Origin: Chiloscyllium plagiosum
Lineage: Eukaryota
DNA: 64,000 bases
Direction: 5' to 3'
Assembly: GCF_004010195.1 (NCBI RefSeq)
Contig: NC_057725.1
Span: 32,682,786-32,746,785 of the forward strand
In this document: positions 18,566 through 56,635 of the stretch, in pieces
Layout of the letters: each line of letters begins with the position of its first letter
Position numbering within the stretch: position 1 is the first letter of the stretch
Notes under the pieces: model-generated
Seen by the model: only the letters and a program-made list of their open reading frames with translations
What the model was told of the DNA's origin: nothing
The model's database searches: none
Translations under genes and position numbers: made by a program

Positions 18566-18879
18566 TTAAAAAACCAGATGCATACTTTTTTCCATCACTT
18601 CTTGGGTTTCTGGATGAATAACCTCACAGCTGATTCCTATGCCCTGATCAGATTCTTCTGGTGTAAGTTCTATACTTGTTACAGATGAGAAGAGACCATT
18701 TTTATTAACTTCAGGCTTAGTATGAGCCACTGGACCTATGAAGGGCTGCTTTCCTGCAAACCACCTAATTTCAATTCCTTGAGGTGCATAATCAGTCAGT
18801 TCAACGGTAAAAGTTGCCACTTTGTTTTTCTCTGGTTGCGTTGGGTTACATTTGATTTCCGACAGAGTGGGAGGAGAAC
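18566..18879 (-). CDS. Gene A exon 10 (terminal): post-TM C1-like Ig domain 6 (B-strand Cys absent), ends in TAA
   Basis: tttaag| acceptor; GSPPTLSEIKCNPTQPEKNKVATFTVELTDYAP...IRW...NGLFSSVTS...ISCEVIHPET...HLVF*. Confidence 0.83.
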
Positions 18880-19855
18880 CTTAAAACAGAACAGAACGTA
18901 CAAATATTGAGTGTGCACATTATCTACAGTGATAATTTGTCTCAATGTTACAGTAAACGTTCTTGACATAACTTTAGCAAATTGAATTACTGTTCTCATA
19001 TTGAACAGCAGGAATCATGAGAAATCAAAAGCTGGACCAAGGAAATATTTGGGAGTGACAATTGAGATAAACATTCTTTTAGATTAGATAGATTAGATTC
19101 CCTACAGTGTGGAAACAGCCCTTCGGCCCAACAAGTCCGCACCGACCCTCCGAAGAGTAACCCACCCAGACCCATTTCCCTTTAACTAATGCACATAACA
19201 CTATGGGCAATTTAGCATGGCCAATTCACCTACCAGAGGGATGTCATTTTTAGTAAGGCCATAAAATGAATTTCCCAGATTATTTGCACTCCAGAATACG
19301 AAAATAATTAGTAGAAGCACCAAAAGGCTGAAAAAGGCAAATTTTTTTTCTGCTTAACAGTTCAGAACACAGCATGAAATTACTGAACTGTTAGAAAGGC
19401 ATGGATAGTCAACATAGGTTTACAAAAGGTGGCTCATCTTTTGGGTGAGGCCTAACAGTAGCACCCTCTGCACAGTAAACAAATGCACCTAACAGGGTGG
19501 TTTTAACAGCAACTAGTCCTGACATCTCACCTAACTCTCAGTAATGACTTCAAATTCCACATCTGGGATCAGACTTGGACTGCCATTCTAAACTTAATGT
19601 GAATAACCCAAAGAGCAGTGTTTGATCATTTAGCAAGTTCCAGTCTTCTGAAACCAATGAATTGGTACATTCACCCATCTGGGCCCATTTATAATGAATA
19701 TAAAAGCACTGGAAATAGGTATTTAGGAGCAGGTGCCACTTTTATGAATGATATTTCTTTAAAACCATGATAAATTCAATTCTATTCTTGTTTCATAAAT
19801 CATTCAATGCTCAAGTTTCTGCAGTAATTAGAGTTTTGCACAATTTTAAACATAC

Positions 19856-20167
19856 CTGGAAGCTTCAAACATAGATGCTTTTGAATAGGTTTGGGTAAAG
19901 CTTTATGTGTCACCTCAAATATAATTTCCTTGTTATCATCCAAAGCTGTTGGTGTTAACTCCATGCTGGAAACTAACTGATAATAGCCACTTTCTTCCTT
20001 CTTAGGCTCTGTGGTTGTGACTCCACTGGAGACATACTTGTTATTCATTCGCCATCTGGCAGACAATTCATTTCCAGAAAAATTTTTTACTTGGCATTTA
20101 AGAACAAGGCGCTGTCCATAGGATGGAACTTCTGGCTCCAGAACGATGTCAGAAACTACTGGAATTC
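19856..20167 (-). CDS. Gene A exon 9: post-TM C1-like Ig domain 5 (F-strand Cys absent)
   Basis: aaatag| acceptor, |gtatgt donor, 312 nt; GIPVVSDIVLEPEVPSYGQRLVLKCQVKNFSGNELSARW...GYYQLVSS...IIFEVTHKAL. Confidence 0.83.
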
Positions 20168-21159
20168 CTATTTGGAAACAAGATACTGTTCATCAAGCAT
20201 TTTTTTCTCCATCCAAACTGATTCCACATCATGACCTATTGTACCTATATCACCACTCAGCATGCACTAGTTAACAAAGCTACCCAATTCATTTTTGTTT
20301 CCTTTTACTATTCCCCAAGAATGCCAAACATCATTGTGAGAATATGTATAGGGTATATGCAGGCAGGTAAAGAGTTAAGTTCTGAGTTTTGTCAGATAAG
20401 AACTTAGAGTTAACAATTCAGTGCTGAAGGCAAGGGTAATGGGTTAACAAGGTGGAAAAGCAGTAATTATGTATAGACATTTAACAATATTGGAAGCGTT
20501 CAGTATGAAAAGTCAGTCAACAAGGAGAAAAGTATCGATTATATGAATCCAGTTAAACAAGTTAAGAACATTCATTGTATAACAGTAAAGGGCTTGGTCT
20601 CTGCTATTGATACTCATTAATTGTAACGATCACTCAATTAATATGTACGTTGCCTTATCTGGATGCTCCTCTCTGTAAAATGACTTTATAGTTCCTTGAG
20701 AAACTGTTTGAGAGAAGACCGAGAACTTGTGTCTCTATGCACATGGGTGATCATTCTCCCTCCCTTTGGGGCCCAGAATAAAGAAGGAGGCAAAACCATA
20801 CAGGTGTCTCTGAGTGTTTTGCTTCGACTGAGGGGGAAAAGGGATGACACTATTTGCACATTTAGTTCCTGTCTTGGTCACCTTGTAACTACATATCTGT
20901 AATTGCTGTCAAGTCATACTCATTTCATTTCTATTTGTGCTTGCCAACTTGCCTACCTTGTTAAGAGTGCTGTGTGCATTCAGATAGAAAGCCTTGAGTT
21001 TTGACTTTTTCTAGTTCTAATTTCTGCTGCACAGCTCTGAATATATTTTCTATCCCATGTCACACTTGGATTATCATTCATCTCTTCAATACCCTGCACC
21101 GCTGCTTTCACACTTCTTTTTGATTTTTTTAAACTTCACCAATTGAACACTTTTCTCCT

Positions 21160-54261: not shown

Positions 54262-55770
54262 TGATTTGGAGGTGCCAGTGTTGACCTGGGGTGTACAAAG
54301 TTGAAAATCACAACACCAGGTTATCGTCCAACAGGTTTAGTTGGAAGCACTAGTTTTCAGAGCGCTGTTCCTTCATCAGGTGGTTGTGGAGAATAAGATC
54401 GTAAAACACAGAATTTATAGCAAAAGTTTACAGTGTGATGCAACTGAAATTATACATTGAAAAAGACCTGAATTCTTTAAGTTTCTCATCATCAGTTAGG
54501 TCTCTCATCTTTTAGAATGAACCTGTTGGTTTCAGTTCTTTCATATGCAAATTCCAGAACTTTTAAAAAAAAAGTTACATTCTCAAGTGAACTTTAACAA
54601 TAGGTGCCATGTCGGTTCAGATAATGCCTTGAAGGTATGAGGCTGTCTGTGCCCCCATGTTCAGACTGATTCTATTTCTAAAAAACTGATTTACAGAATC
54701 TTACATGGATTCATGCACAATTCCATTTATTTTGCTCAAAAACTGCAAGTACAAATTCACTCCATAAATGTGTGGGGGGGTGGGGGGAAATATGAGTGTC
54801 TGTGAGAGAGTGTGTGCATGTGTTACAAATGTGAGTGTAAAGGGGTTTAATCTGTGAGACGGTGCATGTGTGGGTGTGAGTGTGGGGTGTGTGTATGTGT
54901 GAGCATATAAGAGAGAGCTTGTGTATGAGAGAGGGTCTACATGACTGTATGGATCTGTATGAGTGAGAGAGAGAGATGCAGTGGGGTCACCTGTAGTGTG
55001 ACATCAACCAAGGTCCCAGTTGAGGCCATCTCCATGGGTACTGAACTTGGCTATCAGGCTCTGTTCGGCCTCAACCGGGACCTTGGGTTCATAGCACACT
55101 ACAGGTGACCCCACTGCACTACACAATCTTTATCACACATGCATGCACACGCTTCTACAGACACACATAGACCCTCTCTCGTAACAAGCTCTCGCTTACA
55201 CGTACATGTACACACACACACATACACACTCACCCTCTCACAGACTTACAACCTCTTTACACTCACACTAACACACATACACACTCACAGACACGCACAC
55301 CATTCCATACACACACACACGTTTGTGGGGTGAATTTGTACTTGCAGAATTAAAATGCAGTTAAGCAAAATAAAATTAAGATTCTGTAAATCCCTTTTTT
55401 AGGTTAGAATCAGTTTGAACACTGGGGCACAGACAGCCTCACACAGGGCACCTCACACCTTCACTGCATTGCCTGAGCTGACATGGCATCTATTGGTAAA
55501 GTTCACTTGAGAATGTAACTTTAAAAAGTTCTGGAATTTACACATGAAAGAACTGAAGTCAACATGGTCAATCTAAAAGATGAGAGACTTAAACAATCCA
55601 GGTCGTTTTCAATATACAAGTTCAGTTACATCACATTGTAAACTTTTGCTATAAATTCTGTGTCTTACAGCCTTATACTCCACAACCACCTGAAGGAGCA
55701 GCACTCCGAAAGCTAGTGCTTCCAAATAAACCTGGTGAACTATAACCTGGTGTTGTGAGATTTTTTAAGT
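54262..55770. repeat. Palindromic Penelope-derived insertion in intron 1 of gene A
   Basis: Inverted arms meeting near 55060; same family as 57324-59796; diverged TSD ttgaaccatcat / ttgaaacgtcat; interrupts a CR1 tail. Confidence 0.8.
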
Positions 55771-56559
55771 TTGAAACGTCATAACATTGAAGGCTAGGGG
55801 CCATATGTTAGCAAGGGGGACTGGTGTAGATATAGATTATGGATTAGAGTGGTGCTGGAAAAGCACAGCAGGTCAGGCAGCATTCAAGGAGCAGGGAAAT
55901 AGGTGTTTTGGGGCAAAAGCCTGAAACGTCAATTTTCCTGATCCTCAGATGCTGTGCTTTTTCAGCACCACTCTAATCCATAATCTATATCTACACCAGT
56001 CTCTGAGTTCCAGCATCTGCACTTTTGCCTAGTAGACTTATAGCAGCCTGTCTTTGGTGCAGTCTCCATGGTTCTCTTGTGTTTTCCAGTGATTCACTGT
56101 CCTGTATTAAAAGCAGGCTGTGCTCAGTTAGTTGATGGGGCGCTGGATCTGAACCAGTGGACCTCAGATTGGCAGCTGTGGAGGGAGACCAAGATCCTAT
56201 TGACCCAGAGGTCAAAAGCCAGCTGTCAAACAGCCTGCGACATATATTCTTGAAACACGTTATTCAAACCATTGTTATTTTCGTAACGAAAGTTTTAAAA
56301 AAGGGATAATTAAAAGCGCAGAAGTTCTGCAGAAAGGTCACTGGACCTCTACAGATGGTCAATTTCTGAGTTTCTCCAGCTTGAGGAAGAATTTAAGCTT
56401 TACACCCCAATTTTAAAAAAAAATACATTAATTTGAGGCCTTAGAAAAGAAGTGTCTGTCGCCTATTTTACACCCGGGGAAAATCCAAAGTACAAAGCCT
56501 TTGCGCCAAGCCCTCCAGAAGCTGGCCGAACGGCCGTTCCTCCTATCCCTGACCTTTAC

Positions 56560-56635
56560 CTGAGAGCGGTACCAGAGTCAGCAACAGCACTAACACCGGG
56601 ACCAGAGGCGGCAGCGAGCTCCTCACCCGGCTCAT
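56560..56635 (-). CDS. NCR3LG1: Gene A exon 1: signal peptide of B7-H6/NCR3LG1-like gene (MSRVRSSLPPLVPVLVLLLTLVPLS)
   Basis: ACCATGA start context; basic N-terminus then hydrophobic core; donor CAG|GTAAAG; 76 nt, phase 1, joins exon 2 in frame (E-QGDL); lies in a CpG-rich segment. Confidence 0.88.

Follow-up and report, generated by a model that had tools for sequence, protein, structure and literature searches.

A shark B7-H6-like gene predicted to carry six C1-type immunoglobulin domains on the cytosolic side of the membrane

The 64,000-nucleotide stretch of Chiloscyllium plagiosum DNA that we analyzed (NC_057725.1, positions 32,682,786-32,746,785; hereafter the window) contains, on its minus strand, a gene in which a signal peptide, an immunoglobulin (Ig) V domain, an Ig C domain and a single transmembrane (TM) helix are followed by six further C1-like domains, D1 to D6. 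Judging from sequence and fold comparisons, this gene is likely a shark co-orthologue of B7-H6 (NCR3LG1), and the statistics that we gathered across its relatives place its six-domain tail very probably in the cytosol. The architecture is real, ancient and unusual. C1-set domains are conventionally assigned to the extracellular or luminal side, as components of adaptive immunity familiar from antibodies, T-cell receptors and the major histocompatibility complex. The gene itself is not new, since sequences are public and one of them is named B7H6.

Ten exons join into 2,952 nucleotides encoding 983 amino acids (aa) and a stop codon (Table 1), and all nine introns have GT-AG ends and lie in phase 1. 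The domain exons found by a six-frame scan and a self-search of the window were all on the minus strand. Our recomputed join reproduces the frame given in a preliminary description of this DNA, and the V and C1 domain classes proposed there agree with Pfam, which assigns exon 2 to the V-set and exons 3 and 5-10 to the C1-set, with five of the six tail exons above the curated cutoff and D1 (exon 5) marginally below it (20.8 versus 21 bits). The preliminary description had found no second TM segment between exons 4 and 5. Just two 19-residue windows of the product exceed a Kyte-Doolittle value of 2.0, at aa 6-24 (the signal peptide) and aa 257-275 (the TM helix, followed by KYLKK), and the third-highest reaches 1.33. 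From aa 26 to its end the product is identical to the RefSeq model P0001 of the same species. The first exon of P0001 differs in that the region around exon 1 (window 56560-56800) is read in another frame, without a signal peptide; it was probably mis-predicted, and the signal-peptide exon of the window is kept in close orthologues.

Table 1. Exons of the gene and associated features, by position in the window
Feature	Position	Strand	Remarks
Exon 1	56560..56635	-	Signal peptide, aa 1-25; same leader in orthologues P0023, P0024 and P0002
Exon 2	52251..52613	-	V-set domain, predicted NKp30-binding face; Pfam V-set E 4e-12
Exon 3	49746..50066	-	Extracellular C1-type domain; Pfam C1-set E 5e-11
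Exon 4	43263..43379	-	Sole TM helix, ending in KYLKK; 117 bases; helix in structure model
Exon 5	40088..40522	-	Tail D1, 145 aa, long acidic insertion; without F-strand Cys
Exon 6	33714..34091	-	Tail D2, Cys pair present; strongly conserved CPIxGFKPRPL motif
Exon 7	32393..32704	-	Tail D3, Cys pair present; best solved matches SIRP gamma and alpha C1 domains
Exon 8	27423..27746	-	Tail D4; without F-strand Cys
Exon 9	19856..20167	-	Tail D5; without F-strand Cys; solved matches are Ig constant domains
Exon 10	18566..18879	-	Tail D6 and stop; without B-strand Cys; no second TM beyond
Interferon-stimulated response element (ISRE)-like element GAAAGTGAAA, then CT	56724..56733	-	About 90 bases 5' of the start codon, within CpG-rich sequence
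Next tandem paralogue, promoter element and signal-peptide exon	5837..6006	-	

Human B7-H6 ranked first for both extracellular domains, in rankings made from solved-structure matches and fold comparison: it supplied the top three of six solved matches to exon 2 (E 1.4e-14, with CD276 as the next family at 4e-8), the top three of 33 to exon 3 (best E 3e-12), and the top four of 50 rows in a fold comparison of the ectodomain (Z 23.8, root-mean-square deviation 1.7, 211 aligned residues), in which the next family reached Z 19.1 and the butyrophilins about 18. A nurse-shark record, QTT61907.1, named 'natural killer cell cytotoxicity receptor 3 ligand (B7H6)', is 980 aa long, 82% identical to our product and built on the same eight-domain V-C-TM-D1..D6 plan in a different species, and the axolotl and Discoglossus relatives appear at NCBI as NCR3 ligand 1. 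As in B7-H6, the leader, IgV, IgC and TM segments each occupy an exon of their own, in keeping with a type I plan. The preliminary description had called the gene B7-H6-like, and this label is now backed by sequence, fold, the nurse-shark record and the neighboring genes described below. Given this kinship, we think it probable that the V-C part is an NKp30 ligand, one that would probably be interferon-inducible via the ISRE-like element.

An unusual architecture could also arise if two adjacent genes, one encoding V-C-TM and the other a separate C1 array, had been wrongly joined. In Chiloscyllium plagiosum the link between exons 4 and 5 is read from genomic sequence and gene models (a run search with exon 5 listed 24 runs, 15 with all or part of the stretch and none of these listed as RNA, and is not used as evidence). 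However, the same join recurs in independent records from sharks, rays, chimaera, bichir, coelacanth, lungfish, salamanders, frogs, lizards and turtles, as well as in both flanking paralogues. P0015, a relative of 958 aa that shows the full architecture, is encoded on a contig of 3,517 bases, which is too short for introns and is thus most likely a spliced transcript. Since, in addition, exon 4 is free of stops and has a good donor, and intron 4 contains neither a CpG island nor a convincing leader exon, we consider a false join highly improbable. A profile search matched 5,908 proteins with E values no higher than 0.001, and among the best 150, which we analyzed, 108 had one TM segment with Ig domains on both sides; these divergent TM-bearing relatives are the sample for the comparisons that follow.

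With one leader and one TM segment, the tail is cytosolic by default. Three independent features of the sequences point the same way. In 82 of the 108 relatives, the part after the TM segment has a higher net charge than the part before it. N-glycosylation sequons before the TM segment number 338 where shuffled sequences led us to expect 173.7 (1.95-fold), compared with 299 after it where 262.0 were expected (1.14-fold), and sequon density is higher before than after in 96 of the 108 proteins; five control ectodomains contain 54 sequons against 37.2 expected (1.45-fold). We counted the Ig cysteine pair in domains of at least 70 aa and at least 30 bits (at least 25 for controls) in which both positions were aligned. 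Of the domains before the TM segment, 186 of 194 keep it, as do 35 of 35 control domains, compared with 170 of 329 domains in the tail. The single TM segment, the basic residues that follow it, and the loss of both sequon enrichment and the disulfide pair beyond it support the cytosolic placement of the tail that the preliminary description proposed.

Several observations weigh against this placement. The 108 relatives are related by descent and are not independent samples, and the Wilcoxon value cannot be taken as a true probability. In the tail, the sequon ratio still lies slightly above 1, and the window protein has four tail sequons (N325, N367, N804 and, at an exon edge, N561), the first of which falls in a column where 9 of 30 relatives have a sequon. 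Both cysteines are kept in D2 (29/30) and D3 (30/30) among 30 chosen full-length relatives, and likewise in the wider domain count (59/63 and 53/56). There are also isoform X2 records without the TM exon in two sharks (white and basking), and three representatives read V-C-D1 with no TM segment; such forms would be secreted.

The existence of TM-less forms opens another reading, in which the C1 domains are retained to serve a secreted, TM-skipping isoform, a soluble V-C-C1n decoy for NKp30, with the cytosolic form taking second place. With its 117 bases, exon 4 can be left out without a frameshift (as can any domain, because all introns are in phase 1), P0003 and P0007 lack the TM segment and fall 39 aa short of the X1 isoforms, and the cysteine pairs retained in D2 and D3 fit a secreted product. 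However, the pair is mostly lost in four of the six tail domains and the sequon enrichment is nearly gone, unlike in the control ectodomains, and a TM segment stands between Ig domains in the 108 of the best 150 representatives. We therefore regard the decoy as an improbable reason for the tail's existence. The database isoforms P0003, P0007 and P0010 lack either exon 4 (TM, 39 aa) or exon 5 (D1, 145 aa).

The tail spans 691 aa and consists of C1-like exons throughout. In a model of the orthologue P0023 (96% identical), all eight domains fold as beta-sandwiches with a mean predicted local distance difference test score of 81.9, and their relative arrangement is not fixed given a predicted template modeling score of 0.40. 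The window protein has the B-F cysteine pair in two of its six tail domains, D2 and D3. Across the 30 chosen relatives the pair is kept in D1 in 3/30, D4 in 0/30, D5 in 6/27 and D6 in 4/25; these four domains mostly keep a single cysteine, which is thus a conserved cysteine without a partner. Mean identity among 12 cartilaginous-fish orthologues is 55-62% for the tail domains compared with 69% for V and 64% for C. Pfam searches of the tail at E up to 0.1 yielded credible matches to Ig families only and no catalytic domain, and two strings resembling immunoreceptor tyrosine-based inhibitory motifs (ITIMs), at aa 553 and 835, lie inside the folded domains D2 and D5. Protein Atlas clusters for the tail were generic C1-set only, and the Foldseek whole-chain list comprised mainly unrelated multi-Ig chains, headed by a titin fragment with 14% identity and a low template modeling score. 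A two-copy structure prediction of D1-D4 gave a score of 0.00 and a mark of 0.32 and is not evidence either way on self-association.

Searches with the tail gave 9 and 21 named relatives, and the names available for 20 of the best 150 profile matches include a chimaera, coelacanth, lungfish, bichir, newt, horn shark, ray, several frogs and a lizard. A further search found three-domain tails in lizards and turtles. Looking for the same architecture in other sharks, rays and amphibians was thus rewarded, and it turned up in chimaera, coelacanth, lungfish, bichir and reptiles as well. No mammal, bird or teleost is among the named relatives, and as names cover 20 of the best 150, their absence is not established. 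A tree built on 70 domains from 10 sequences, chimaera to frog (110 columns, no outgroup), places C and each of D1-D6 in a single group of its own with bootstrap support of 97-100 (98/77 for D6), and D1 adjoins D2 while D4 adjoins D6. Because each tail domain forms a single group from chimaera to frog, the six-domain tail likely predates the split between cartilaginous and bony fish some 450 million years ago. The architecture is likely to be ancestral for jawed vertebrates, and not shark-specific, as far as these sequences can tell; on this reading, mammals lost the C1 array, and the Gag-like tail of human B7-H6 stands in its place.

Tails in the 108 relatives contain between 1 and 14 detected domains. 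Six representatives (P0062, P0075, P0099, P0100, P0123 and P0115) have V-C or V-C-C ectodomains followed by tails that are apparently repeated two-domain units, the longest with 14 domains in a 2,158-aa protein; the two named members of this group are frogs, and the repetition looks like an amphibian expansion. Elsewhere the tail is one domain type in tandem (P0050, P0071, P0078 and P0087), including seven copies of D1 in the horn shark and four D4-like domains in P0078.

We lean slightly toward an explanation in which the gene encodes shark B7-H6, with a V-C part that binds NKp30 and a predicted cytosolic tail that acts as a scaffold controlling display or clustering of the ligand. The V-C part would be presented at the cell surface, probably after interferon induction, and would bind NKp30 as its kinship suggests; the six cytosolic C1-like domains would form a row of protein-binding modules, and the scaffold so formed would set how much ligand reaches the surface or how it clusters there. 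Given the lack of a catalytic domain in the Pfam searches, the position of the ITIM-like strings inside folded domains, and a conservation near that of the ectodomain, the tail is most simply read as protein-binding modules. The scaffold or sensor role raised in the preliminary description is still a hypothesis, and that these modules serve trafficking or clustering in particular is a conjecture with an even chance of being right.

Alternatively, the tail may be a cytosolic sensor or bait for a pathogen or stress molecule, switching on the outer NKp30-binding part from within the cell as the B30.2 domain does in BTN3A. Butyrophilins exert inside-out control of a lymphocyte ligand, and their plan of V-C, TM and folded tail, with ectodomains ranked just below B7-H6 in our fold comparison, resembles that of the shark protein. 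The ISRE-like promoter element and the tandem V exons of the genome, at least five in number, are consistent with a sensor, and so is the range of tail copy number, including the seven-fold D1 repeat of the horn shark; this range suits a role in sensing or in an arms race no less well than it suits a fixed scaffold, and so counts against our explanation. However, the order of the six domains has been stable across the span from chimaera to frog, and the tail is conserved nearly as well as the ectodomain, and we consider a sensor possible but rather unlikely. A broader form of this idea, which we offer only tentatively as unlikely, is that the ancestral NKp30 ligand of jawed vertebrates used its cytosolic C1 array to sense infection or stress and to turn on natural killer (NK) cell recognition from within, in the manner of B30.2. 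Such a sensing array would then, equally doubtfully, have been kept from chimaeras to reptiles, expanded to as many as 14 copies in some, and given way to a Gag-like tail in human B7-H6.

It is also conceivable that the tail is freed by proteolysis after the ectodomain is shed and acts alone in the cytosol. The title of a cited reference states that human B7-H6 is shed by metalloproteases, and D1 begins about 11 residues past the TM window (median), which would make the tail a self-contained folded unit. The sequence, though, offers no evidence of a cleavage site or targeting signal, and we give a released tail little credence.

The scaffold explanation can be set beside several known systems. 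Human B7-H6 shares the leader, V, C and single TM segment, is the best match in sequence and fold, and likely occupies the same chromosomal neighborhood, whereas the shark gene differs in its 691-aa tail of six C1-like domains and in its several tandem copies. The human protein has 454 aa and an intracytoplasmic domain homologous to Gag, according to its description (PMC2715080), which agrees with the Gag-like tail given for it in the preliminary description. A human-type Gag-homologous tail is ruled out in the shark gene, where six C1-like exons fill the whole tail; such a tail is a hallmark of the human form and does not define the family.

The butyrophilins BTN3A1 and BTN2A1 resemble the shark protein in their B7-like V-C ectodomain, single TM segment and folded cytosolic module, although their module is B30.2 (PRY-SPRY). 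Membership of this family is ruled out, as none of the six tail exons gave a B30.2 match in Pfam at E up to 0.1. SIRP alpha and gamma and tapasin/TAPBPR likewise carry C1-set domains outside antigen receptors; in these proteins the domains lie in the lumen or outside the cell and are disulfide bonded. D3 finds its best solved matches among SIRP C1 domains, and NCR3LG1 clusters with TAPBP and TAPBPL according to PMC13262535. The ectodomain plans of both groups are nonetheless unlike that of the shark protein. SIRP membership (V-C1-C1, with tyrosine motifs in an unfolded tail) is ruled out by the presence of V-C only before the TM segment and by ITIM-like strings inside folds, and tapasin/TAPBPR membership (an extra N-terminal domain and a short tail) by a V domain directly after the leader and a 691-aa tail. 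Titin, obscurin and myomesin also have tandem intracellular Ig folds, and these function in the cytosol without needing a disulfide. Their domains are I-set and come without a leader or TM segment, whereas the shark tail is C1-set by Pfam.

Ig domains in a B7-H6 tail were not found in the titles and abstract openings searched, and the likeliest sources of a prior description lay outside these. The available parts of ten papers (PMC12227049, PMC10751288, PMC10450919, PMC12272517, PMC13262535, PMC11926128, PMC3964593, PMC4536121, PMC2715080 and PMC11599192) make no mention of them, and a term search of one supplement of PMC3964593 for the tail architecture gave no matches. The odds that the architecture has already been mentioned in print are about even; a functional study of the C1-array tail did not turn up in the literature searched. 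Many genes of the family are unnamed or misnamed in databases, where they appear as uncharacterized, CD276-like, SIRP-like or Ig gamma-like. If our reading is correct, conserved cytosolic C1 arrays would widen the role of the C1 fold and show how it remains folded when its disulfide is missing. The human Gag-like tail would then have taken the place of an ancient folded module at a late stage, suggesting that this position in B7-H6 has always had a job.

The contig that carries the window (C16) also holds neighbors expected of B7-H6. NUCB exons lie at C16:33.15 Mb (three of five matches, not assigned to NUCB1 or NUCB2), a weak PI3K match at C16:33.22 Mb (the weakest of seven), and the only RPS13 match at C16:33.34 Mb. 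The human B7-H6 locus, at 11p15.1, is flanked by NUCB2, PIK3C2A and RPS13 on one side and KCNJ11 on the other, and the order and orientation of the NUCB, PI3K and RPS13 matches likely agree with this arrangement, for one flank only. KCNJ11 speaks against shared surroundings, since it is found at 44.0 Mb on the same contig, 11 Mb away, and one flank of the neighborhood is therefore broken.

The gene belongs to a tandem cluster. To the left of the window, a downstream paralogue (C16:32650133-32674664) has V, C, TM and D1-D6 exons. Its promoter and leader exon are nearly identical to those of our gene, while its ectodomain and tail are only about 29% identical (comparison with P0021, at family level), and the first exon may have been recently copied between old paralogues. 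An upstream paralogue (C16:32753401-32795682) has V, C, TM and five tail exons detected within the 130 kb examined. These comprise D1-D3, a D4 exon whose frame apparently no longer matches near its end, and one further short exon, and this copy may be partly decayed or may reflect an assembly error. Two further B7-H6-like V exons (C16:32889300-32889611 and 32995034-32995339) lie between the window and the NUCB gene.

The ISRE-like element upstream of exon 1, so labeled from the ISRE consensus, also precedes the signal-peptide exon of the downstream paralogue. Intron 4 has an observed/expected CpG ratio of 0.10-0.58 compared with 0.84 for exon 1, and the CpG scan found no island in it. Nine mildly hydrophobic windows (1.8-2.3) occur in intron 4 and 13 downstream of the gene; none of the nine is a convincing leader exon, one of the 13 is the leader of the next paralogue, and by eye the remaining windows resemble unremarkable intron or intergenic sequence. 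No relative requires an additional TM or leader exon in either place. The preliminary description had reported the interval between exons 4 and 5 to be free of CpG islands, leader exons and ISREs; the first two points stand, while the third needs amending for a single isolated 10-base ISRE-like core at 41831, which is expectable by chance.

Intron 4 also contains Penelope/GIY-YIG-like fragments (window 42213-42848, plus strand), and this retroelement sequence accounts for a GC-rich patch at 42.3-42.9 kb. Similar fragments occur at 12338-14051, beside a run of N, and an LTR (long terminal repeat)-type reverse-transcriptase fragment lies at 3073-3738 on the plus strand; these retroelement labels are putative and based on motifs.

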